Shown: in pieces, positions 2,622 to 50,158 of the stretch
Position numbering within the stretch: position 1 is the stretch's first letter
How the letters are laid out: each line of letters opens with the position of its first letter
Sequence record: OR776998
Origin: Escherichia phage YX22
Direction: 5' to 3' (one strand)
DNA length: 64,000 bases
The notes under the pieces: model-generated
Seen by the model: the letters and a program-made list of their open reading frames with translations, nothing else
Told to the model about the DNA's origin: nothing
Databases searched by the model: none
Program-made: the position numbers and the translations under genes

Positions 2622-3399
2622 TGTTCTTTTTCTCCCGTTCTTCTAATCTTTGTTTGAGGGCTTCCCAATCTGGTTCCATCGCACAGATATCATCTTCCAG
2701 ATTGAATTGGGTTTTGCCGAAGTCTTGATCTGAATTGTCTTCGGCCTGCGCTGTTACCGTATTCTTAGCCTGCGCCATGTATTGAAGTATGCCTTTCGCA
2801 ATCTTTTTATTCGATTCTGCGAGACGAGCTGCCTCCACCTTCTCTCGCTCCTTCTGCCTTTGAGCGTCCTTTTTGTTCTCAAAGTTGCCGATACGTTCAC
2901 GGAAGTCCATGCCAATTCCTGTAGCATCAACAAAGACCTCTTGTTGGAAGTCGGGATCGTCTGCCAGGCCTGCGAACCCACCCGCCTCTTCAAATGAGCG
3001 CAATTTAATGTACGTGTGCTCTTCTTCGATATTCAGTTTACGAGCGAATGATCGATCAGCACACATGGTCACCCAAGAGAAGAAGTTGATCTTCCCTTTC
3101 TTTCCAATGTGTTCGACGTCAAATGTGTGGAGGTAACGCAGGATGTTGACGATTGCTTCAGAGACCATGTCTTCACGGAAGGGATAATCGCGATAGTTGT
3201 AGCGGGTACTCATCTTGGTGATGATGCGCTGGACCTGCAGAGCAACATAGTTGGGGATCTTTGGAAGCCTGGTGCCCTCAGCAAGTGCTTTCTTGCGAGC
3301 AGGGATCCAATCACGAAGGATACTAATGACACGCTCGTTGTCTTCGTCCGTGAAATATTTGACGACATTCTCCCCTCTGTCCACGAAGTTCATTCCCAT
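2608..3399 (-). CDS. 55: gp55-like late-transcription sigma factor
   Basis: Segment ITKMSTRYNYRDYPFREDMVSEAIVNILRYLHTFD matches the T4 gp55 core pattern (RFNFSGY...FD) recalled from memory; position upstream of 47/46; GAGG about 9 nt upstream of the ATG. Confidence 0.7.
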   Translation of the reverse strand: MGMNFVDRGENVVKYFTDEDNERVISILRDWIPARKKALAEGTRLPKIPNYVALQVQRIITKMSTRYNYRDYPFREDMVSEAIVNILRYLHTFDVEHIGKKGKINFFSWVTMCADRSFARKLNIEEEHTYIKLRSFEEAGGFAGLADDPDFQQEVFVDATGIGMDFRERIGNFENKKDAQRQKEREKVEAARLAESNKKIAKGILQYMAQAKNTVTAQAEDNSDQDFGKTQFNLEDDICAMEPDWEALKQRLEEREKKNNGDC

Positions 3400-3410
3400 T
3401 ATGATAGTCC

Positions 3411-3938
3411 TCAGATACCGATAAATTCATCAAAAGATCCAACAACCTTCTTCACCGAGATCTTGTCATTCTCAATCAGGAAGTTGCTGTCGTTTTTGGC
3501 TGCTGTAGCCCAGTCATCGGCAAGTTCGTTGCCTTCGTGTCCCGCATGACCCTTAACCCATTTTAGTTCAACATCACAAATTGAACAAACGAGATCATAG
3601 ATTCTGAACAGATCTTTGATGAGTTCAACGTTCTTTTCTGGGAAACCCTGATACTCCCACTTCGTTCGCCATTCGGTGACACTCTTGATGGCATATTGGC
3701 TGTCAGACCAAATTGTTGCCTTTGGTATTCTGCGCTCACCCTTTCCTGAGAATGCCCACAGTAGCTTCAATGCGTTGGTCACACCCAACAACTCGGCGAT
3801 ATTGTTAGTGGACGGGGGAGGTAGATGACCGAAGAACACCTTCCATTGCATACCCGTTATTGGCCTGATGACAAATGCCCAGCCTGCGGCCTGGTTGGTC
3901 TTCGGGTTAGAACCCCCGTCAGAATAAATTTCTATCAT
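3411..3938 (-). CDS. Ribonuclease HI (RNase H type 1 fold)
   Basis: Internal ATG at 3938 gives MIEIYSDGGS...; motifs SDGGS, NNIAELLGV, SDSQYA and WVKGHAGHEGNELADDWA closely match E. coli RNase HI (TDGS, TDSQYV, WVKGHAGHPENERCDELA). The upstream part of the 207-aa track ORF is probably not translated. Confidence 0.85.
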   Translation of the reverse strand: MIEIYSDGGSNPKTNQAAGWAFVIRPITGMQWKVFFGHLPPPSTNNIAELLGVTNALKLLWAFSGKGERRIPKATIWSDSQYAIKSVTEWRTKWEYQGFPEKNVELIKDLFRIYDLVCSICDVELKWVKGHAGHEGNELADDWATAAKNDSNFLIENDKISVKKVVGSFDEFIGI

Positions 3939-3940
3939 GA

Positions 3941-3952
3941 TATAAATATCCC
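3941..3952 (+). promoter_or_regulatory. Late-promoter-like element TATAAATATCCC on plus strand
   Basis: Exact T4 late core TATAAATA followed by CCC, about 32 nt upstream of the plus-strand ATG at 3984 (RBS AGAGGAA). Confidence 0.5.
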
Positions 3953-3983
3953 AAACTGGTTTTATAGAAAGAGGAATGAAACT

Positions 3984-4751
3984 ATGGCACCCCGCGCATA
4001 TCGTTTCAGTCTCACCGCCCCGCAGATTGAGCAATTGCTCCTCTCTATCTATGATGCTATCAAGTCAGAAGATATCATCTATGATTATGCTGCAGGTGGG
4101 ACTGCTGGACAAGTCGCAGCAGCTTCTGCTGTCAAGAACATGTGGTTGAAGCTCAACGAGATGGTGACAGGCCAAGGTCTCAAAGATGCCATCAACGATG
4201 CAGAAGACAGCAACGTGTTCACCGACTATTATAAGTCTTTACTGGATCGCGAAGGCTGGAAATTTATTGGATCTCCAGCAGATGAACTTCAGCGAGGCGA
4301 CATCGATACCTCGAACTTCAAAGGTGGTGAGGTCATTCTACTTCAGAAGAACGCTTCAGGCAACCCAGAATTCCAATACTGGAAGCGAACCCCTGTTGCT
4401 GGGGGTGATCCTACCTTTGCATGGGCTTCGGTCTATGAAGGGAACTCTAATGATTCCAGCATAGAGATTCCCGTGGTTGGCACCAGCGTACTCAAGGACA
4501 TCCCCAAGGCACTCTTCCATATGATCGAGTTCAGAGTGCATGTCTACGATGAGACACTGGGTCATTGGCAAGACACCGACGGGAAGGTGGGGTATCGTGG
4601 CGAGGATCTGATCTACAGTGTATACAACCATATTCAGACCAAACCTCTCGCCACCATTGACTTCAGCCAAGATACGGACAATATGACGGTTTCTGTGACG
4701 TCGTTGGAACCGAATGTCAAGTGCCATCTGTCCTTCGTTGCGGGTTACTAA
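3984..4751 (+). CDS. Hypothetical protein, probably late-expressed (possible virion protein)
   Basis: Internal ATG at 3984 (MAPRAYRFSLTAPQIEQ...) preceded by AGAGGAA and the late-promoter-like element. Protein-like composition, while the N-terminal extension of the track ORF is antisense to the RNase HI gene. Lone plus-strand gene in a minus-strand block. Confidence 0.55.
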   Translation: MAPRAYRFSLTAPQIEQLLLSIYDAIKSEDIIYDYAAGGTAGQVAAASAVKNMWLKLNEMVTGQGLKDAINDAEDSNVFTDYYKSLLDREGWKFIGSPADELQRGDIDTSNFKGGEVILLQKNASGNPEFQYWKRTPVAGGDPTFAWASVYEGNSNDSSIEIPVVGTSVLKDIPKALFHMIEFRVHVYDETLGHWQDTDGKVGYRGEDLIYSVYNHIQTKPLATIDFSQDTDNMTVSVTSLEPNVKCHLSFVAGY

Positions 4752-7216: not shown

Positions 7217-7491
7217 TATTTGACCTCCGATTTGGAGATTAACAATTCCATCTCCGGGCGACCAATGACAGTCTCAACTTTGTCTTCTTCAACCATCATT
7301 TCATTCAGAAGATCGTACCCCAGGACTTGTACACCAAAAGACTTTTTATTCAGTTCTGCCTCAATATCGAGAACTCGCTGAACCGTCAGGCCACCGGAAG
7401 AGAACGGGACCGGATAGAAAGCAGAACACACTTGCGTGCTCCCATTTACGCTGTAACGAACCAGCAAGACATCACACCATACACCAGCCAT
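7216..7491 (-). CDS. Hypothetical protein
   Basis: 91 aa ORF, ATG start, tightly packed in the minus-strand operon. Confidence 0.4.
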   Translation of the reverse strand: MAGVWCDVLLVRYSVNGSTQVCSAFYPVPFSSGGLTVQRVLDIEAELNKKSFGVQVLGYDLLNEMMVEEDKVETVIGRPEMELLISKSEVK

Positions 7492-7492
7492 G

Positions 7493-8155
7493 TCACACCT
7501 CCACCGCGTGAGACTTCAGAAGTTCATCAATCTCTTTCTGTCCCATGTATGAGAACGGGGTGCGCTGGTAGAACGCCCAGAGTACTAACTGGACAACAGC
7601 ACGGGAACGGGTTTCGGCCGTCATCACCAGGCCACTGAAATGAGGAGACTCAGCTGTCCATTGTATCTCTTCGCCCAGGTCTTGATTACAGGTCACCGAG
7701 ATGCGGAACTTGTTGCACAGATTGTCGACCTCTTTGTACGCATCGGTAGACACACGAAGTTGTTCCGCATGTGCCCACGGAGTTGTGACGATTCTTTCAC
7801 CCATCACTTTATCAGAGATAAACCAATCAATACATTCGGTAAACTCACTAAAATGGTCGATACGATAAATGCAGTCTCCCCCTTCCATAGAACGCATGGC
7901 ATGATAGCGAGCGTCGATTTCGTTGTTGTGCATCGCGTTGAAGTCGATGAACACGCGACGCGCCAGCACAACATCTTCTGGTTGAAGTGCCAGGAAATCG
8001 TTCAGGCGGCTATAATGGAGGATATTGGAACCGTCGTGGCCACGTGTGCAATATGCGTAATAGCTACCGATACGGGCGTGGGCAATATAAGACAACGGGG
8101 CGAAGAATAATCCGTCAGGATCAGGACCGACGATAATAGAATAAAGTTTTTCCAT
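7493..8155 (-). CDS. Hypothetical protein
   Basis: Internal ATG at 8155 (MEKLYSIIVGPDPDG...) preceded by GAGTGACTATATC; 220 aa; no recognisable motif. Confidence 0.5.
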   Translation of the reverse strand: MEKLYSIIVGPDPDGLFFAPLSYIAHARIGSYYAYCTRGHDGSNILHYSRLNDFLALQPEDVVLARRVFIDFNAMHNNEIDARYHAMRSMEGGDCIYRIDHFSEFTECIDWFISDKVMGERIVTTPWAHAEQLRVSTDAYKEVDNLCNKFRISVTCNQDLGEEIQWTAESPHFSGLVMTAETRSRAVVQLVLWAFYQRTPFSYMGQKEIDELLKSHAVEV

Positions 8156-8211
8156 GATATAGTCACTCAAATGAAAGGGCAGCTTTATGATAAGCCGCCC
8201 GAGGTTATTGA

Positions 8212-9078
8212 TTATTGGAAATCGCCAACATACATGTTCAGCTTGTCGTCCCAATTCAGAACGACACGGATCGTTCCAGTATCTTCTGGGAAGGTCAGTT
8301 TGTCACACATGGCGCGATTAACATAAGTCCCGCTCTGGTTGACGTTGTAGTCCTTGCCTTGCATGATACCAAAACGCTTGAAGTCGCGAGTGACCATCAT
8401 GTTCAGAGTTGTCCAAGGGATTGTATCGCGCAGGGCTTTGCACAGGACGATCTTGCCATCCGACCTGAACGACACAAACAGCTCGTTGGCGACACGACGG
8501 CGAGTAGGCGGTTCAAGTTCACGCAGGGAAATGAATTGTGAATTCTTTACCTTTTCTGCCAGCGCCTGTACTTCTGCTGGATCCGGCTTGAACGGCTCCA
8601 CTGAAGAGTCAGACTTCATCACAACGTCACCCTTGCGCTTCTCAACCAATTGCTCCACAGCCTTTTGACTCACGGGAGGGAGGTATTTGGACTTAGGAAC
8701 AACCGCTGGCTTGATGACAGGGCTTGCATCTGGTTTCGCCTTTGGAGTACTCCGAGCCGCACGCAGCTTTTCCTGGGCTTCCAGAATGCGCTCTTGACGA
8801 GAAAGCGGAGCCTTTGGGGTGATCTTCGTACTGAAGTCAGAAACGCCGACCCAGTCACCCTGGTCGTTGCGCTTGGCGACCAGGGTCAGTTTGTGGATGA
8901 TACCCTGAAGTTTGCTCTCACGTAAGTTGTCGGCATACCAGAACTTCGCACCCATCTCGAACTTCTCGGCGAAGATCACGCGAGCGTCTTCGTGTACCAA
9001 CATAACTTTGGCTGCGTTGGGGGCAAAAGTCTTATTCTTTTCGATAATCGCCGCAGCGATTGTTTTGGTCAGGAGCAT
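8212..9078 (-). CDS. Hypothetical protein
   Basis: Track ORF starts at GTG (9081); adjacent ATG at 9078 (MLLTKTIAAA...) with AAGGA upstream; about 288 aa; K/P-rich central linker. Confidence 0.5.
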   Translation of the reverse strand: MLLTKTIAAAIIEKNKTFAPNAAKVMLVHEDARVIFAEKFEMGAKFWYADNLRESKLQGIIHKLTLVAKRNDQGDWVGVSDFSTKITPKAPLSRQERILEAQEKLRAARSTPKAKPDASPVIKPAVVPKSKYLPPVSQKAVEQLVEKRKGDVVMKSDSSVEPFKPDPAEVQALAEKVKNSQFISLRELEPPTRRRVANELFVSFRSDGKIVLCKALRDTIPWTTLNMMVTRDFKRFGIMQGKDYNVNQSGTYVNRAMCDKLTFPEDTGTIRVVLNWDDKLNMYVGDFQ

Positions 9079-9117
9079 CACAGTGTATTCCTTCAGTTCA
9101 CAATGTAGGGCTAAATT

Positions 9118-9444
9118 TTAACCCGAAACTTTATTTTGAAATCCGACAAAGTCCTGGGCAATTCCCCGGCAATACATCAGGTCTTTCTTCGTTTGTGGAC
9201 TGTTGTCAGCCGCAGTCAGCATCATGGGAAGATCCAGCGCATTCTCTATCTGATCAACACTGAACAGATCAAGGCGCTTCAGCTCTCCCTCGAAGTCAGA
9301 CAGGAGGATAGATGTGTCTTTGTCATCTGGGTGGAACTGCTGATACGTCTCCATCCATGCCACACATGTGTTCAGTTTGGACGGTGGCGCAGCGTTTACA
9401 CACCCGGCTATCAGTACCAACAAGAGCAGGATTTTACATTTCAT
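9118..9444 (-). CDS. Putative lipoprotein
   Basis: ATG at 9444 gives MKCKILLLLVLIAGCVNA: signal peptide with lipobox IAGC; 108 aa. Confidence 0.5.
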   Translation of the reverse strand: MKCKILLLLVLIAGCVNAAPPSKLNTCVAWMETYQQFHPDDKDTSILLSDFEGELKRLDLFSVDQIENALDLPMMLTAADNSPQTKKDLMYCRGIAQDFVGFQNKVSG

Positions 9445-10130
9445 CACTCGTTCTCCTTCATCATATTGTCGCAGTCAACACGAGTCTGCTGGAGTTCGCG
9501 CGACATGCGGGGATCATCAAGGTTCACGCTCAGATTCGTGGCCAGGTCTTTCAGACCGTTCTGAACCCTGTCTTCAAAGTAATAATCGTTCTCAACCAGC
9601 CAGGCTCTGAGACCGAGAGCGCGAGTACGCCATTCCTTCTTCAGGACGCGATCAGAGGTCTGCGTAGCGCTGTATTCGAATACTTTGATGCACTGGTTGC
9701 CATCGTTGATAAGGTTCAGGTGGCGGCGACCAACCTGCACACCCTTCTGTAATGCCGGAGAAGGGAGCGAACGGCACTGTCTTACGGTCATTCGGCCTTG
9801 GGTGCCCATTCGGCCAGTCATGATCAAATCGCCAGCCTCCATGCCGCCTCGATTAAATTCATCGTCATTGAGGTAGCCCTTGAGGTTATAGGCTCCCTGT
9901 TTGTAACGGTTGAACTCAATTCCGGCATTGACGACAGCAGTGGAGACGTTGCCTGTGTTCCAGAGTTCAGCGAAGTTCTCTATGGAACCAGACTTGTCGA
10001 TGGCAACCGCCTGAGAGAACCCAGCACAATAGGAAAGGTCGGACCACAGTTTATCACCTGTGGAGTTCAGCTTGGCAGCGGCGGGTAATGCCAGACCAGC
10101 CAGCACAACCCCGAGGATTAAACGTTTCAT
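9444..10130 (-). CDS. Putative secreted/periplasmic protein
   Basis: Internal ATG at 10130 gives MKRLILGVVLAGLALPAAA (cleavable signal peptide); 228 aa; 1-nt stop/start overlap with the downstream lipoprotein gene. Confidence 0.5.
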   Translation of the reverse strand: MKRLILGVVLAGLALPAAAKLNSTGDKLWSDLSYCAGFSQAVAIDKSGSIENFAELWNTGNVSTAVVNAGIEFNRYKQGAYNLKGYLNDDEFNRGGMEAGDLIMTGRMGTQGRMTVRQCRSLPSPALQKGVQVGRRHLNLINDGNQCIKVFEYSATQTSDRVLKKEWRTRALGLRAWLVENDYYFEDRVQNGLKDLATNLSVNLDDPRMSRELQQTRVDCDNMMKENE

Positions 10131-10209
10131 GGCGATTCTCCTTATTTCATTGGATGAAATGATAGGCGGCTCACCATAATGAGTAAAGGGATTCAATAAA
10201 CTATCGTAT

Positions 10210-10659
10210 TCAGAAACGGGTGTCGCTGACCGTTCTGTATCGCACACCCTGAAACTGTTTAGCGAGTTTAACAAATTCCATCGCTGGCAAATCAACTTTG
10301 TAGACCTTCATGCGCTGTTTGCCGTCCATGTTCAACGCAGCGACAAATCGGTGAGAACCGTCAACAACGTAATTGTCAGAAGACACCCAAACTCGACCCA
10401 TAGGTTTCTTATTTCTGATCTGCTTCATGATCTTCCAGACCTTCATTTTATTGATTTCGTTCTGGGTAAGACGAAGCATTTTGATGGGCACTTGCACAGC
10501 ATCTATGGACACGCCGTTGTCTTCAAGATATTTGTGAAAATCTTCTTGTTTGTCGGCATCGATTTGTGGCATAGAAGAACGAGAAAGCCCGAGGTTCCCA
10601 ACAGGAATCCTCAGGCCGTTAATGATGTTCAACCAGTCAATAAAAGATGTAAGGAACAT
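10210..10659 (-). CDS. ParB-like nuclease (ParB/Srx N-terminal domain) protein
   Basis: 149 aa; VQVPIKMLRLTQNEIN...YVVDGSHRFVAA resembles the ParB N-terminal domain signature (DGxHR); GAGG 7 nt upstream of ATG. Confidence 0.45.
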   Translation of the reverse strand: MFLTSFIDWLNIINGLRIPVGNLGLSRSSMPQIDADKQEDFHKYLEDNGVSIDAVQVPIKMLRLTQNEINKMKVWKIMKQIRNKKPMGRVWVSSDNYVVDGSHRFVAALNMDGKQRMKVYKVDLPAMEFVKLAKQFQGVRYRTVSDTRF

Positions 10660-10691
10660 GACATACCTCGGGATATAGGGTTATCCCTTAG

Positions 10692-10883
10692 TTAGCGCAT
10701 CCATCGATCCTTTCTCTCTTTCTCCTTGCGTTCGCGACGTTTCTGGTCGGATCGGAATAACCAATAGAAGAAGTTCCCACCCAAGATGAAAACCACCGCG
10801 ATTATTACTAGGACACCCTTCACAATTTCCCAAACCAATTCTTTATCCAAATTATACCTCGTCTTCTTCAGGTCCACCGTCAA
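10692..10883 (-). CDS. Possible small membrane protein (TTG start)
   Basis: 63 aa ORF with hydrophobic helix VLVIIAVVFILGGNFFYWLF and basic tail; first codon is TTG, no SD, overlaps the upstream gene by 32 nt. Confidence 0.25.
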   Translation of the reverse strand: MTVDLKKTRYNLDKELVWEIVKGVLVIIAVVFILGGNFFYWLFRSDQKRRERKEKERKDRWMR

Positions 10884-11139
10884 TCAGGATACGAGCGGCG
10901 TCGAAAGTTTCCCCGCCCGTGTTCAACAGCTTGGTTAGATCATCAAGAGTACCGACAGGACCAAGATCAGCCTGGCGGAGAACGAACTCGAGAAGCCCGT
11001 AGAGCGCTGATTGGAATCGGCTGTTATCGATATCGTTCTTTATTACCATCAGGCGCAAGATGTTCTCTGACTGAGTATGGTCAACACACGCCTTGTCTCT
11101 GATCATCTCCTTGATAGAACTTCTCTCTGATGGTGTCAT
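10852..11139 (-). CDS. Hypothetical protein
   Basis: 95 aa, ATG start forming an ATGA overlap with the stop of the upstream gene. Confidence 0.4.
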   Translation of the reverse strand: MTPSERSSIKEMIRDKACVDHTQSENILRLMVIKNDIDNSRFQSALYGLLEFVLRQADLGPVGTLDDLTKLLNTGGETFDAARILIDGGPEEDEV

Positions 11140-11510
11140 AACGTACCCCCGACAGAGATCAAGAACTCTTCTTGCATGGTCTTGACCGGGTGGTGGTTGC
11201 GGGTTTCGAACATGAAGCCCCAGCCACCGTCGGCGACGTTGCCAAAGGTCTTGACGCCAAAGGACTTCGTCCCGTTAGAGCAGGAATAGATGTCCAGGAC
11301 GTATGGGCTGCCCTGATTGTCGATCCCACGATTCACGTCGTCTGATACGCAGCGCTCAATCATCTTCCCGTTCTTATACAGAACGAGGTCTTGGCCATAC
11401 GCCTTGAAAGCATAAACACCGTTGGTAGACACTCCGGTGATGACAGGAGGGGCGGAAACAGCAGCAAAGGAAGCGCCCAGCAGGGCAACAGCGAGGATTA
11501 ACTTTTTCAT
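11136..11510 (-). CDS. Putative secreted protein
   Basis: Internal ATG at 11510 gives MKKLILAVALLGASFAAVSA (signal peptide) immediately after GAGACTATATC; 124 aa. Confidence 0.5.
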   Translation of the reverse strand: MKKLILAVALLGASFAAVSAPPVITGVSTNGVYAFKAYGQDLVLYKNGKMIERCVSDDVNRGIDNQGSPYVLDIYSCSNGTKSFGVKTFGNVADGGWGFMFETRNHHPVKTMQEEFLISVGGTL

Positions 11511-12257: not shown

Positions 12258-12299
12258 GCTACTTCTCCCAAAGAAAGGCGGGTTGCCCCGCCCGTTGGA

Positions 12300-14501
12300 T
12301 TATATTTTGATTTCTTTCTCTGTCAGTTCGGCAGTGACCTTGTACTTCACCCCATCCACTTCAACTTCCATGGTGGACTCTTCCAGGTCGAGGTCGGTGA
12401 ACCAGCCATGGCCAGCAACGATACCATACACCACTTTAGACAGTGTCTTGTTCAGGGCGCGGACTTCGGTGATGGCCGCCTTGGCAGCAGCGTCGATCCA
12501 GTTTTCGATCAGATGTTTCTGTAAGGATTCAGGCACGGCAGTGATCATAGGAGACTTCACGAATGCTTCGTACTCCTTCAGCGCATTGGCGATGAACAAG
12601 TCACCAGCATTGAGTTTCTTGTTCTCGGCAATCTTCTTCTGTACCGCTGCGATAGACGGTAGAGATGAAGCGCCAGCGATCTTCACGTTCAGCTCACGGC
12701 TCATGTAGAAGTCGGTAGACTCTTTGGTCTCAGTCTTCGGTGAGAAGCCGTAATCGCGGATGCCGTAGGAGGACAGGAACTCGGCCGCCTCAGCGCCGTA
12801 CTGTACTGCCAAGCCTTTGGCGTTACCCTTACCAACCAGGGCGTCTCGATAGAACTTCAGCACCTTCTGCTTGCCTTTCAGGGCTTCCAGACGGACATTA
12901 TCCGCAAAGAACTGAGCAGCACTGATGTTCTTGACCATGGCGCGGTTGACCAGCGGTACGCTTTCCAGGTTCAGGACAAACACTTCCGGACCACCAAACA
13001 CGTGGACACCCATTTCGATCAGCTTATGCACGACTTCGATATCAGCCTTGAACGGCAGAGTCTTCACGTTAATGATACCGTCTTTGACGATGGTGTAGTT
13101 GCGCCACTGGAAAGTATCCAGTTCTTCAGGCAGACCGAACTTCTTCTGTGCGAATTCAGGCACAGCCACAGTACCGTGTTGAATTGTACGCACACTGATG
13201 TTCGGGCGCTCGGAGTTATAGACCAAATCGCTGATTGGCACAACACCCAGGTCGTTGGTAGGTTCGAACGTCGGGTTCCACTCTTCGTGTTCTGCCAGCT
13301 TGAGAGCCAGTGCTTTACGCTCTTCTTTGGACTGAGCGTTCGCGATCTGTTCTGCCAGCTTGTCTTCGGTGTCGTCGGTTTTCTGCACAGTACCGCGCCC
13401 GATGCTCTTATAGGAGAACATCGGATGCTTGGTAGCAACAGGCACACCAGCTTCAGCCAGGTACGTCAGCACATCAACGACGGTGGTCGCATCTTCAGCC
13501 GGAACCAGGTCATAGTCAATACCGTCAACGCCGCGCAGCTGGTCGTCAACAATCGCCTGAACCAGATCGTTCTTGATGTTGGAGTAGTCCTGCTTGGTGA
13601 AGCAGTTGCTGTACTGTTTGATGAAGCGAACGTCGCCCGTTTTCTTCAGTGCAGCCCACACCAGGTCCGCGTCCATGATGTGTACGCCGTAGAACGCCAG
13701 CACGTATGCCGCCTGGATGTCCGCCAGCGCATCAAGCTGGTCGATCATGTTAGGGTTTACAACCCACAGCTTGGTGACGCTCTCAGGGATGCTCACATAG
13801 CCGACCGGGTGAGAGTCATCGTCCTGCACCGCCAGTACTGTTGCCACACCGTTTTCGACGTAGATGGCATGGGTGTAGATGACTGGGACATCAACTTTCA
13901 CCTTCGGCACTGATGACTTCAGCACGTTTTCCAGTTCGGTCTGGTATTCGGTCTGACCTTCAGCAAACACGTGGGTCGCACCGGAGCGCTCAGACATCAG
14001 AGCTAGCAGTTCGCGGTTACAGTACCAGCCATATTCGATAAATGTAATGTTATCGAAAGCAAATGGCAGGGTCTCAGCAACCAGTAGAATTTCGTTGGTA
14101 CGCCAGCAGTTGTCATACCCGTCAGTCATGAACGCCAGGTTGTTGACATAGCCAGGTTTCTTCAGGTCACGCGCAGTATCCATCGCCAGTTTCAATGGCT
14201 CAACGAAACCAGTACAGCCGGATGGTTGCAGGAAACGGTCGATCAGTTTGTTCAGCTCGCTCAGGTCAGACGCAGCACTAACCTGGCGGCCAGCGAACAC
14301 AGTACCAAAGTCGCCTTTGGAGGAGAAATACAGAACGCTCACAGTGTCTTCCGGCTTCACCAGGGATGGCAGGTTCTCCTTCAGGTGCTTGCGGACTTCA
14401 GGGAGCGCACGGTACATAGAGCCGGAAATGTCTACAACGATTACATGGTTGGACGGAGCAGCAGTCGCAACCGCATTCTTAAATTCTAATGATTCAATCA
14501 T
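12300..14501 (-). CDS. von Willebrand factor A (vWA/MIDAS) domain protein, 733 aa
   Basis: ATG at 14501 (MIESLEFKNAV...); N-terminal vWA signature VIVVDISGSM (DxSxS MIDAS), G/T-containing loop, FMTDGYDN; roughly 500 aa C-terminal region of unknown fold. Confidence 0.7.
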   Translation of the reverse strand: MIESLEFKNAVATAAPSNHVIVVDISGSMYRALPEVRKHLKENLPSLVKPEDTVSVLYFSSKGDFGTVFAGRQVSAASDLSELNKLIDRFLQPSGCTGFVEPLKLAMDTARDLKKPGYVNNLAFMTDGYDNCWRTNEILLVAETLPFAFDNITFIEYGWYCNRELLALMSERSGATHVFAEGQTEYQTELENVLKSSVPKVKVDVPVIYTHAIYVENGVATVLAVQDDDSHPVGYVSIPESVTKLWVVNPNMIDQLDALADIQAAYVLAFYGVHIMDADLVWAALKKTGDVRFIKQYSNCFTKQDYSNIKNDLVQAIVDDQLRGVDGIDYDLVPAEDATTVVDVLTYLAEAGVPVATKHPMFSYKSIGRGTVQKTDDTEDKLAEQIANAQSKEERKALALKLAEHEEWNPTFEPTNDLGVVPISDLVYNSERPNISVRTIQHGTVAVPEFAQKKFGLPEELDTFQWRNYTIVKDGIINVKTLPFKADIEVVHKLIEMGVHVFGGPEVFVLNLESVPLVNRAMVKNISAAQFFADNVRLEALKGKQKVLKFYRDALVGKGNAKGLAVQYGAEAAEFLSSYGIRDYGFSPKTETKESTDFYMSRELNVKIAGASSLPSIAAVQKKIAENKKLNAGDLFIANALKEYEAFVKSPMITAVPESLQKHLIENWIDAAAKAAITEVRALNKTLSKVVYGIVAGHGWFTDLDLEESTMEVEVDGVKYKVTAELTEKEIKI

Positions 14502-20973: not shown

Positions 20974-22194
20974 TTATTCAGGTTTCTTCAAACGGTCCAG
21001 CAAATTGACGGAACCACGTTTGAGCACGACTTCATCACAGCGCTTTTTGTATTCCCCACCGCCGTCATATCCAACCTTCCCGCGCGGTTTTTTACCTTTC
21101 TGTATGGCCTCTACACAACGGGTGTACTTGCTCAGTTCACAGAACATGTTCTCCAGCTGCATAACGTTCATGCACTGATCTACAGGCTCTTCGGCCGACC
21201 AGAATTTCTCGCGAACATACCCATATTGGGAGTACACTGCGTCCTGGTTGTCCCGTAGCCAGAAGATGCATTCTTCGTGGGTCATGCCATCTTTGTCCTG
21301 GAACATCAGATCAATCCCTGCGCGACAGCCTGGTCCAGCAACCGTGAAGTGGTTCTCACTGAAAGGATATCCAGGAATGTACGTGAAATCAACCCAGATC
21401 TGGTAGGCCAGGAATGGACCAAGCCCTTCGATGTCGTCATACATGCGCTGGTATACTTCCAGAGGAGTACCAAGGCGCAGCAAGTCATGGAAATAGTTTG
21501 GATACTTGTTGGCGAATGCCTTCAGGGAACGGATAACACGCATTGGCATGTACGGCTCCCAGCCTTCTATGGTGTAGAAGTCCGGCTCTGCTTCAGCAAT
21601 AGCCTTGGCTTCCTTATAATCCATGTTCTGGGTCGAACCGTCCTTACAGATCAGGTTCACCATCATCCCACCGAAGCGCTGCTCTTTGTGGTTGACAACC
21701 AACTCAGGGAAAGCCAGGCATTGCTTCAGACCACCTGTGTTGAAGGCATTGGTGAATACTTTACCGCCGTCGGCCTCGAACTTCTGAAGTCGTTCGCGGG
21801 TTGCGTCAAGGTTGATCTTGGCGAATTCTTTGATCGTCATCGCGCCGCCGATAGCCTGAATTGGATCCCAGAGGTTGAACATGCGAAACATCACGCAGTT
21901 GAACATCTTGTCGGCCATACCCAGAGCATCGTTGTTGACGATGTTGTTGATCAGGTTGAGAGACTGCCTGTCGTGCTCTCTCCGGACGTTACAGAACTTG
22001 ACCTGCCGTAATATGGAATTATCAGTCCAAGGAGCAGGAAGGCGCTGGACGTCCTTCTTGACGTGGATCTGATAACGATCGCGCATCCATTCGTAAGACA
22101 GGCAGGTATGGGTCGGACTGAGAACCGGTTTGGCCGACTTTATCTTTTCTTCACGGACACCGCAGTACGGGACGTCTAGGGCTTTATCTTTCAT
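20974..22194 (-). CDS. Hypothetical protein (406 aa), function unassigned
   Basis: Long ORF with ATG start; no confident motif; possibly a nucleotide or DNA-modification enzyme (speculative). Confidence 0.55.
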   Translation of the reverse strand: MKDKALDVPYCGVREEKIKSAKPVLSPTHTCLSYEWMRDRYQIHVKKDVQRLPAPWTDNSILRQVKFCNVRREHDRQSLNLINNIVNNDALGMADKMFNCVMFRMFNLWDPIQAIGGAMTIKEFAKINLDATRERLQKFEADGGKVFTNAFNTGGLKQCLAFPELVVNHKEQRFGGMMVNLICKDGSTQNMDYKEAKAIAEAEPDFYTIEGWEPYMPMRVIRSLKAFANKYPNYFHDLLRLGTPLEVYQRMYDDIEGLGPFLAYQIWVDFTYIPGYPFSENHFTVAGPGCRAGIDLMFQDKDGMTHEECIFWLRDNQDAVYSQYGYVREKFWSAEEPVDQCMNVMQLENMFCELSKYTRCVEAIQKGKKPRGKVGYDGGGEYKKRCDEVVLKRGSVNLLDRLKKPE

Positions 22195-22262
22195 GGTATC
22201 CTCTTAAAATACGAAAACAGAGGCCATTATAGCCTCTGTTGTTTAGTGAACAACTGTATATC

Positions 22263-23135
22263 TTAATCGATACGGGTCAATTGGGTGATAGATGATTGCA
22301 CTGGGCTGGCCACATAGATACGGACGTTGGCTTTCCATTCACCCCAGATCAACGGCAGAGTTGGGAAGTTGTCTTCATTGAAAACAAACACGGGAATGTA
22401 GCTCTCGACTGTTTCGCCAGAGAACGCCTGGAAGCCCATCTTGGTGTATCCCACGATCTCGTCAATAAAATCGAACGGAGCGAAGGCAACACCAGCGTGT
22501 TCGTTAGAACCGAGCTGGCCTGGAATGGCCGTACCCGTCAGAATGATTTCAGTGATCTGGCGCTTAGGCTCGGCGGTCAACATATCAGAGAAGTCAGGCT
22601 CTTTGAAGGTTGCCATGTTCTTCAGGAACTTGCCAGCCGGGTATTCTTTGCCGTCGACGGTGATGGTGTCCACCACTTTGATGCACGCCTGAGGGAATTC
22701 CCCTTCGATGCGTAGACTTTCGCGTGGGAATCCTTTGTTGTAGTAGTAATCCAGTGCTGGCACAACTTCACCTTCATTGCGAATGAACTTGCTCATGTTA
22801 GAGGCATACACGCGCTGTAAGCATTCGTCGCCGTCGAAACCAGCAATATGAGCCAAACCGTCGTTGACTGTTGTGATGTCGCCCTGGGCATCCATGATCT
22901 GGCGCATAATGTCTTTGATGTCGACAACAACAGGTTCTTTCAGGACTCGCGGAGATGCAGTGAACTCAATTTTCACCTCGTGGTCGAAATACGCCGCTTC
23001 CAGCAGTTCACGGGTTTCTTCCAGCACCAGTTTCGCCTGATTGCGGATCTTACCAAAGTCGGGCGATGTGACGTCGCCCTTTGCATTACCGAAAGCCAGA
23101 TTCAGATTCACGTTCTTGGAAAATGTAGTTGTCAT
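22263..23135 (-). CDS. Hypothetical protein (290 aa)
   Basis: ORF with ATG start; acidic helical N-terminus (LVLEETRELLEAAYFDHE). Confidence 0.5.
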   Translation of the reverse strand: MTTTFSKNVNLNLAFGNAKGDVTSPDFGKIRNQAKLVLEETRELLEAAYFDHEVKIEFTASPRVLKEPVVVDIKDIMRQIMDAQGDITTVNDGLAHIAGFDGDECLQRVYASNMSKFIRNEGEVVPALDYYYNKGFPRESLRIEGEFPQACIKVVDTITVDGKEYPAGKFLKNMATFKEPDFSDMLTAEPKRQITEIILTGTAIPGQLGSNEHAGVAFAPFDFIDEIVGYTKMGFQAFSGETVESYIPVFVFNEDNFPTLPLIWGEWKANVRIYVASPVQSSITQLTRID

Positions 23136-49077: not shown

Positions 49078-49836
49078 TTATCCCATGTAGAAGTCGATAG
49101 GGTACTGCTGACCAGTACGCAATTCTTCCTCTAAACGCTCGATCTCCGCTTCAGCCTCACTGAACATACTATCGCCATCCAGCTCGATACCGCCAGGGAG
49201 ACGGATGCCTCTTGCCTTCTTGAGCACTTCTGCCCAGCGGCGCTTGACCAACGCAGTTGCATATGCCTTCAGCCACATATCATTCCATGCTTCTTCATTA
49301 CCCTCAACCTCTGGGTCGATGTTCTGGAAGCATTTGAACGCCAACACCTCGTCCTTTGTCAGGGCGAATTGTGGGTAGAGTTTGCGCTGGAATTTCTTGT
49401 AAACGAAGGTGCGCTTCACGTTCAGCACACTGGTGATGTCAGACAAACGCTGTTGCATTGAAACATAGTCGACCAAGCGGATGGAAACGAGGGCGGCCTT
49501 TGGTACCAACATGGCTTGGGCCATCTGCCATTGAGGGGTTGCCCAGTTACCGATCGATTCAATCGGAGGGCCAACGATGACTTCAACCACGTCGTCGATG
49601 TCTTTGGGGAATTCGATGTAACCGTTGGTGATAGTTTCTTCAGTCACCTGGTGAACAAAGAATGCGTCCTGACTGCCATCACGATGATACTCCCAAAACT
49701 TCTGTAGAGCATCGTCTACAGCATCCGAAACTTGCGTTGGGTCAAGGTTGATCTGAATTACAGGTGCCCCCAATTTCTTGAGAATGTAATTCATAAATCC
49801 TTTACGATCAACAATAGAATTAACGGCCATTGCCAT
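49078..49836 (-). CDS. 13: Neck protein gp13
   Basis: 252 aa; LKKLGAPVIQINLDPTQV, YATALVKRRW and LPGGIELDG parallel T4 gp13 (LRRLGAPIINVELTPDQI, YATALAKE, LPGGVTIDG). Confidence 0.85.
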   Translation of the reverse strand: MAMAVNSIVDRKGFMNYILKKLGAPVIQINLDPTQVSDAVDDALQKFWEYHRDGSQDAFFVHQVTEETITNGYIEFPKDIDDVVEVIVGPPIESIGNWATPQWQMAQAMLVPKAALVSIRLVDYVSMQQRLSDITSVLNVKRTFVYKKFQRKLYPQFALTKDEVLAFKCFQNIDPEVEGNEEAWNDMWLKAYATALVKRRWAEVLKKARGIRLPGGIELDGDSMFSEAEAEIERLEEELRTGQQYPIDFYMG

Positions 49837-50158
49837 TCCCCTTGTTGCTCTGGATATCAGCGACGGTGATACGTAAAGTGCGAACGTCGTCGGATAGACT
49901 GTTGCTATTGAGTTTCAACTCAGCAACGTTCTGCTTGACGTAGTTAACGTCTGTGTTTAACACAGCAATCTTCTCATTCATATCGTTCACCTTGGTGAGG
50001 ATTAGGTCGACCTTGTTGGAGTCACGCTCAACCACATCAAGGCGATTCTCAAATTTACCCATCATCCAAACAACCGAGCCAACAGAGACTATCGTCGCCG
50101 TCAGCACCCCGGTGAGGATCGCTTTCACATCGATCATAGTGTCAGTTTGGGTTGCCAT
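49820..50158 (-). CDS. Membrane-anchored coiled-coil protein (type II topology)
   Basis: Internal ATG at 50158 (MATQTDTMIDVKAILTGVLTATIVSVGSVVWMMG...): one N-terminal TM helix then heptad-like sequence; 112 aa. Confidence 0.45.
   Translation of the reverse strand: MATQTDTMIDVKAILTGVLTATIVSVGSVVWMMGKFENRLDVVERDSNKVDLILTKVNDMNEKIAVLNTDVNYVKQNVAELKLNSNSLSDDVRTLRITVADIQSNKGNGNGR

Follow-up and report, generated by a model that had tools for sequence, protein, structure and literature searches.

What do two adjacent genes for exported proteins contribute to an infection when their products resemble nothing outside one phage family and databases label the two a spanin? The genes code for proteins of 228 and 108 residues (the large and the small subunit, respectively) and lie within a stretch of 64,000 nucleotides (nt) of Escherichia phage YX22 (sequence record OR776998), which is referred to here as the window. 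A sequence-only reading of the window had pointed to a cluster of three open reading frames (ORFs) for exported proteins, one with a lipobox and two with classical signal peptides, and had placed them with superinfection-exclusion, Spackle-like or receptor-masking factors. Judging from the homology searches, the first two form a Sec-exported, cysteine-containing pair that is specific to the Ackermannviridae and conserved across that family. The predicted topology of the large subunit largely refutes the view that they are a canonical spanin, and we tentatively propose instead a periplasmic complex that would guard the envelope of the infected cell.

Export signals, coupling and distribution of the pair

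All three ORFs (Table 1) were found on the minus strand, each with an N-terminal export signal. The 108-residue protein begins with MKCKILLLLVLIAGC-VNA/APP (the slash marks the predicted signal peptidase I cleavage), and its lipobox, L-I-A-G-C (nt 9400-9414), is as first described: I-A-G-C occupies residues 12-15, the lipobox cysteine is Cys15, the +2 residue is Val, and a signal peptidase I type site (VNA/AP) follows four residues on. The 228-residue protein begins with MKRLILGVVLAGLALPAAA/KLN and the 124-residue product of the third ORF with MKKLILAVALLGASFAAVSA/PPV. These two signal peptides are present as claimed but are just similar rather than near-identical, with 9 of 19 residues shared. 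Both proteins display the features of Sec substrates of signal peptidase I, namely a positive n-region, a hydrophobic region of about 10-15 residues and small residues at -3 and -1 (MKR, 12 residues and PAAA/K in the former; MKK, a hydrophobic region and VSA/PP in the latter), and these features are conserved in their respective families. Cleavage is predicted from the (-3,-1) rule, the length of the hydrophobic region and conservation. In all homologues of the exported proteins the N-terminal export signals are kept even as the signal-peptide sequences drift, which argues for real, selected signals and supports the export of all three proteins. A crude six-frame scan of the 64-kilobase (kb) window recovered these three ORFs as the only ones combining an ATG start with a strong signal peptide, together with a single credible lipobox ORF, and no embedded or second lipoprotein gene. 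The clustering itself is weakly significant, because two of the three genes are one coupled unit and only about two independent units thus fall within six genes.

The stop codon of the large subunit gene overlaps the ATG of the small subunit gene (TGATG, 9442-9446), and the AAGGAG ribosome-binding site embedded upstream of this junction is invariant at the DNA level in five aligned phages from three genera. A stop/start overlap of 1 or 4 nt recurs in all 21 pair loci recovered from IMG/VR, every one of them on a contig of 152-161 kb. By this arrangement, the overlap and the embedded AAGGAG site provide translational coupling of the pair. Escherichia phage A221 and related Agtrevirus-like Ackermannviridae match the window DNA at 97-98% identity and the Salmonella phages Marshall and Maynard match it at about 92%, values that identify the source of the window as an Agtrevirus-like member of the family. 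The same gene order (vWFA ... ParB-like, large, small ... HU, helicase) holds around the pair in six genera, represented by Kuttervirus (Vi01), Agtrevirus (AG3), Limestonevirus (RC-2014), Taipeivirus (Magnus), Miltonvirus (3M) and Nezavisimistyvirus (Bue1), and in two divergent metagenomic contigs. Among 5.8 billion proteins the large, small and 124-residue proteins matched 30, 37 and 10 clusters, respectively, all from Ackermannviridae, and an exhaustive HMMER search of 1.84 billion representative proteins gave 11 matches to the large protein, none of them cellular. No homologue of the pair outside the Ackermannviridae was detected in IMG/VR, in the 5.8 billion proteins or, for the large subunit, in the 1.84 billion. 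Likewise, none of the exported proteins has a match in Pfam, NCBIfam, PADLOC or, by sequence or profile, the PDB.

The large subunit has a Sec signal peptide at residues 1-19 (nt 10074-10130) followed by a mature chain of 209 residues. The uncharged run from L4 to A19 ends in LPAAA/K, and in all homologues a hydrophobic region of 12-16 residues is followed by a proline and an AxA-type site, which takes the form (L/I)PAxA/K in close relatives and AWS/E, ASA/A, ANA/G or VHA/R in distant ones (32-36% identical). An AlphaFold model of the protein is a compact, globular, all-alpha structure with nine helices (predicted local distance difference test score, pLDDT, 84; predicted template-modelling score, pTM, 0.72). 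The pLDDT was 37.5 with 19 close homologues and reached 84 after the addition of three relatives of 32-34% identity from the exhaustive HMMER search. No relative of this fold was found among solved structures. Four cysteines (35, 119, 147 and 220) are invariant, one pair per domain, and such conserved pairs fit folding in an oxidising compartment. The versions from Miltonvirus 3M (126 residues) and Bue1 (165 residues) consist of the N-terminal domain alone with one cysteine pair; the full protein accordingly looks like a two-domain structure with one pair in each. Among phages of four genera, with Escherichia, Salmonella, Dickeya and Klebsiella as hosts, identity is 85-99% for the large subunit as against 31-80% for its neighbours, and this excess of conservation implies a conserved binding partner. 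The predicted isoelectric points (pI) of the mature large and small chains are 6.8 and 4.4, respectively.

The mature small subunit is an acidic chain of about 90 residues with conserved cysteines at positions 27 and 92. All 45 small-protein sequences contain a (-3,-1) site 4-16 residues (mostly 7-8) upstream of the conserved cysteine. The lipobox occurs in 8 of these sequences and in 3 of the 21 IMG/VR loci, and identity bands place its carriers at no more than about 27 of 281 phage records. In Vi01, RC-2014, Magnus, 3M and Bue1 the small protein has a plain signal peptidase I site without a lipobox, which is absent from two metagenomic relatives as well, and in one close relative Ser replaces the lipobox cysteine. 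Relative to the Limestonevirus allele, the lipobox allele lacks 15 nt of signal-peptide sequence, in frame, and over the mature part the two agree at about 95% identity. As judged from this distribution, the lipobox is a novelty of one lineage (Agtrevirus, Marshall and Maynard) and not a family trait, and in this lineage Cys15 of the small subunit probably carries a lipid, with the outer membrane as the destination of the protein. The locus would thus be a clean example of a secreted protein becoming a lipoprotein through a 15-nt deletion in its signal peptide.

The spanin label

RefSeq and PHROGs have spread the label 'Rz-like spanin' over the family, and later papers repeat it with no experiment behind it. 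It stands on most of the 85 phage records listed, especially those of RefSeq, including proteins without the lipobox cysteine. The Marshall_94 and Marshall_95 genes are annotated as i-spanin and o-spanin. For the small subunit the sole 'spanin' match is phrog_3843 (E 1.3e-54), in which residues 2-103 of 108 align with profile positions 4-105 of 106; as the match covers the whole length, this entry is taken to be the family's own PHROG. A survey of spanins credits Marshall with a singleton two-component spanin, the longest of those surveyed in periplasmic length, and lists Maynard, Vi01, SFP10, SJ2, SJ3, AG3, CBA120, ECML-4, PhaxI and RC-2014 as spanin-less (Kongari et al. 2018, PMC6139136). 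Marshall and Maynard encode identical pairs, yet the two phages are classed oppositely (PMC6139136, Tables 3, 4 and 10). Two later Texas A&M announcements of Vi01-like genomes also report that a spanin complex could not be identified.

If the pair were a canonical two-component spanin, the 228-residue protein would be an inner-membrane i-spanin and the 108-residue protein an o-spanin, and the two would fuse the membranes at lysis. Like lambda Rz/Rz1 and T4 PseT.3/PseT.2, the pair consists of adjacent coupled genes with the larger first, both products have periplasmic cysteines, and the downstream product is, in this lineage, predicted to be a lipoprotein of the outer-membrane type. The T4 spanin genes, too, are found among early genes. 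The annotation and listing of Marshall speak for the same interpretation, as does the want of any other recognised spanin in the Ackermannviridae. The criteria of Kongari et al. 2018 (PMC6139136) nonetheless divide the pair from spanins. An i-spanin has an uncleaved N-terminal type II membrane anchor, whereas heuristics and conservation indicate a cleavable signal peptide in every homologue of the large protein, unlike the T4 PseT.3 anchor, which spans 19-20 residues without an AxA motif. An extended coiled-coil periplasmic domain is common, though not universal, among i-spanins, whereas the large-protein model is compact and helical. An o-spanin has a lipobox cysteine without Asp at +2, as does the product of the window gene with its Val, but lipoprotein character is not conserved in the orthologues, the lipobox being missing from 37 of 45 sequences and 18 of 21 loci. 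There is also no Pfam Rz/Rz1 or NCBIfam match, and hhalign comparisons with PseT.2 and PseT.3 return probabilities of 0.1-0.2%. The pair further differs from two-component spanins in its early-type promoter, and the spanin-less listing of Maynard, Vi01, CBA120, AG3 and RC-2014 and the Texas A&M reports point the same way. On present sequence evidence, then, the pair shares with spanins only adjacency and, in this lineage, the lipidation signal, and we consider the canonical interpretation very improbable. Its failure removes a false lysis annotation and leaves the breach of the outer membrane by these phages as an open question. At the same time it makes a conserved, predicted periplasmic complex with an orphan fold a concrete target for work on exclusion, lysis or host takeover.

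Elsewhere in the window, a 112-residue ORF (49820-50158, minus strand; phrog_3961) in the late structural module combines a short N-terminus on the cytoplasmic side with a single transmembrane segment (about 21 residues) and a tail of 80 residues, which by eye looks helical and rich in heptads. An i-spanin or a holin-like protein would be expected to have such a type II topology. The ORF has no adjoining lipoprotein gene, and BLASTP against T4 PseT.3 was not significant.

Possible roles in the infected-cell envelope

The exported genes lie on one strand within a block of early/middle replication genes, in accord with the early location given in the sequence-only reading. A sigma-70-like promoter candidate (Table 1) lies 29 nt upstream of the large subunit gene start, and its hexamers are kept in Marshall, Vi01, RC-2014 and AG3, and in Klebsiella phage Magnus, where the spacer has nonetheless diverged. 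Between positions 8000 and 14800 the minus strand contains no late promoter motif of the T4 type (TATAAATA, with at most one mismatch). The promoter scan as a whole was not enriched over shuffled sequences (8 found against 6 expected), and early expression of the pair, as read from the consensus match of this candidate, is accordingly an inference. The best sigma-70-like match in the region is a different one (CTGACA-16-TATAAT, 11/12, 12276-12326, minus strand) in the last codons of the vWFA gene. A terminator-like hairpin comes directly after it, upstream of an acyl-carrier-protein gene, an odd order of promoter and then terminator.

A secreted, cysteine-containing core pair made in fixed ratio, with a well-conserved large subunit and an optional lipid anchor, suggests a complex in the periplasm whose target in the envelope is conserved. 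In such a scheme host RNA polymerase would transcribe the pair from its own sigma-70-type promoter inside the early/middle replication block, and the stop/start overlap would give fixed-ratio translation of the two subunits. Both would be secreted, with signal peptidase I freeing the large one as a compact all-alpha protein and, in most genera, likewise freeing the small acidic one. In the lineage of the window, the 15-nt deletion would have created the lipobox, so that Cys15 is lipidated and the small subunit, with Val at +2, goes to the inner leaflet of the outer membrane. Acting as one complex, the subunits may protect the already infected cell, by a logic of superinfection exclusion or of resistance to lysis from without comparable to that of T4 Spackle or T5 Llp. 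Of the lipoproteins and periplasmic proteins that phages are known to make early, most serve in exclusion or in lysis inhibition, examples being Sp, Imm and RI of T4, Llp of T5, Sim of P1, and Cor. Given these precedents and the Spackle-like gross properties of the small chain, we rank an exclusion-type or Spackle-like role first, with less than even confidence.

T4 Spackle (Sp, gp61.3) inhibits the gp5 tail lysozyme in the periplasm. It resembles the small subunit in that its gene is an early one, as that of the small subunit is predicted to be, inside the replication region, and its product has a Sec signal peptide and a small acidic mature chain. The mature small subunit and Spackle compare at 90 and 75 residues, pI 4.4 and 4.6, and charge -6 and -5, and each has one cysteine near either end, though the likeness is one of gross, generic properties. 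T4 Sp (sp, locus positions 3259-3552) also has a lipobox-like L-A-S-C ahead of its AxA site, the cysteine of which is kept in 6 of 7 aligned homologues. This is the same double arrangement as in the small subunit of the window (LIAGC ... VNA/A). A gp5-like hub and lysozyme are carried by the Ackermannviridae (PMC10892097). Unlike Spackle, the small subunit has an obligatory, larger and better conserved partner and, in this lineage, a predicted lipid anchor. The large subunit was considered as a version of T4 gp61.2, whose gene is coupled to sp, and this was rejected for want of homology. T5 Llp and T1/phi80 Cor, early outer-membrane lipoproteins that block receptors, are like the small subunit in being small lipoproteins of virulent phages with a non-Asp residue at +2, and the protection of the infected cell and progeny is a plausible common logic. 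They differ from it in that its lipid anchor is dispensable, most members being soluble, and in that it has a partner protein and no linked gene for a receptor-binding protein. The sequence search of the PDB gave no match, although the presence of an Llp entry in the copy used was not checked. The T4 RI antiholin is a small, secreted, helical periplasmic protein made early, and the small subunit would be like it in timing and, by composition, is probably helical too. Unlike RI, however, the small subunit has a signal peptide that ends in an AxA cleavage site and lacks an Ala/Gly/Ser-rich signal-anchor-release region; the Ackermannviridae have no identified T-type holin, and hhalign gave a probability of 0.3%, with no similarity between the small subunit and RI.

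Several observations weigh against an exclusion-type role. No sequence, profile or fold link was found between the pair and known exclusion proteins. The small subunit of the window has no Pfam match, which places it outside the T4 Spackle family (PF25676), and in 1 of 22 members of the small-protein family this model scores E 0.09 (13.7 bits, against a cut-off of 27). Remote homology to Spackle was rejected: hhalign gave 12.7% with signal peptides and 0.1-0.2% without, and as the weak signal vanished on trimming it is traced to the signal peptide. To be core to an entire family is more usual for genes with essential functions than for those of exclusion. Lastly, a literature search for an Ackermannviridae transcriptome gave nothing usable, which leaves the promoter consensus match as the basis for early timing.

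An alternative that we rank a close second, again with less than even confidence and hardly separable from the first on this evidence, is that the complex binds and inhibits some conserved constituent of the periplasm or outer membrane (for instance a hydrolase or a protease, or else a trans-envelope machine or a membrane-associated defence sensor), and so aids replication instead of excluding phages. Such host-envelope takeover or counter-defence would suit the 85-99% identity of the large subunit among phages of four host genera, its orphan fold, for which 1.84 billion representative proteins offered no cellular homologue, and the early-type location and promoter; against it, the analysis yielded no candidate target, no similarity to known inhibitors and no PADLOC-related match. 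Unlikely, and ranked third, is a non-canonical part in lysis, whereby the pair would weaken the outer membrane from the periplasm without an anchor or would regulate lysis timing in the manner of the T4 RI antiholin. In its favour, no holin, antiholin or spanin has been identified in the family to which the pair is core, the large subunit is conserved strongly enough to suggest that its target in the host envelope is conserved too, and RI is likewise a small, secreted, helical protein made early; but homology to RI is lacking, the pair is not linked to the endolysin, its promoter is of the early type with no late motif, and a soluble pair cannot bridge two membranes. Moreover, no disruptin-type amphipathic cationic segment is apparent, the mature chains being neutral or acidic (pI as above). 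The canonical spanin comes last in this ranking, far behind the exclusion-type role.

More specifically, it is conceivable, if improbable, that the pair is a previously unrecognised anchor-independent periplasmic lysis device, acting through outer-membrane disruption or control of lysis timing. Were this so, the completion of lysis by the 'spanin-less, holin-less' Ackermannviridae would be accounted for, and the lineage of the window would have been caught acquiring a lipid anchor. Biocontrol and therapy make wide use of members of the family (Vi01- and CBA120-like phages). To our knowledge, the endolysin excepted, their lysis and exclusion functions are not known.

The third exported protein and the surrounding locus

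Table 1. Features of the exported-protein locus, with positions in the window.
Feature	Position	Strand	Source or remark
Terminator-like hairpin after the 289-residue gene	8177-8200	-	9-base-pair stem, 6 GC pairs, T-rich tail
289-residue ORF, next gene past the pair	8212-9081	-	ORF list
108-residue ORF, small subunit gene	9118-9444	-	phrog_3843, labelled 'Rz-like spanin'
AAGGAG ribosome-binding site of the small subunit gene, in the last codons of the large subunit gene	9453-9458	-	
228-residue ORF, large subunit gene	9444-10130	-	phrog_4260, function unassigned
Sigma-70-like promoter candidate, TTTACT-17 nt-TATCAT	10159-10187	-	9/12 consensus matches
149-residue ParB-like protein	10210-10659	-	ORF list
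52-residue single-pass membrane protein, TTG start	10692-10850	-	phrog_14464 (membrane protein), Marshall_92
95-residue ORF	10852-11139	-	ORF list
124-residue ORF, third exported protein	11136-11510	-	ORF list, phrog_5474

The 124-residue protein has a signal peptide at residues 1-20 (nt 11451-11510) and a mature part of about 104 residues with conserved Cys54 and Cys77, which is apparently beta-rich by composition. It is present in 104 phage records, as against 281 for the small subunit, and ranges over Agtrevirus, Limestonevirus, Taipeivirus and a few Salmonella phages, while it is missing from most Kuttervirus. Its PHROG, like the Pfam, NCBIfam and PDB searches, gave no informative match. 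From its distribution it appears to be a separate, accessory rather than core, periplasmic protein of the same general class as the pair.

Between about 8.2 and 14.5 kb of the window every gene is on the minus strand, and nearby genes code for T4-like replication and recombination proteins, namely a helicase, HU, RNase H, gp55, gp46/47, primase, regA, the clamp and the clamp loader. The hairpin after the 289-residue gene probably ends the transcription unit that holds the pair. The 289-residue protein is unrelated to the proteins seen downstream of the pair in two relatives: in Bue1, gp092 (locus positions 3554-4333) is a lipoprotein (lipobox LLAGC) whose gene lies downstream of the coupled genes at a distance of about 650 nt, and in a metagenomic relative a Band-7 (PF01145) protein (locus positions 7237-8028) is encoded two genes downstream.

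The 52-residue membrane protein encoded between the exported genes has an acidic N-terminus, about 22 hydrophobic residues and an extremely basic C-terminal tail (RSDQKRRERKEKERKDRWMR). Its Pfam matches, which include a holin family (E 0.06), are weak and below threshold. Among nine loci, tblastn (E <= 0.001) recovered it in Marshall and AG3 only, a search in which divergent short peptides are easily missed, and RefSeq places a 'membrane protein' at the same gene position in Maynard and Magnus.

The junction between the large subunit and ParB-like genes (10130-10210) is a mosaic boundary. On one side the ParB-like protein is 99% identical to that of Vi01 and 83-85% identical to those of Marshall and AG3; on the other, the large subunit is closer to Marshall and AG3, at 99% identity, than to Vi01, at 95%. 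This switch in identity suggests inter-genus recombination in the intergenic site. Between the same two genes, the phages A221, fGh-Ecl02, ZQ1 and AV101 contain an extra 0.55-0.85 kb that the window lacks, which in A221 (locus positions 21226-22423) corresponds to an ORF of 873 nt and may represent an insertion hot spot or a mobile gene.

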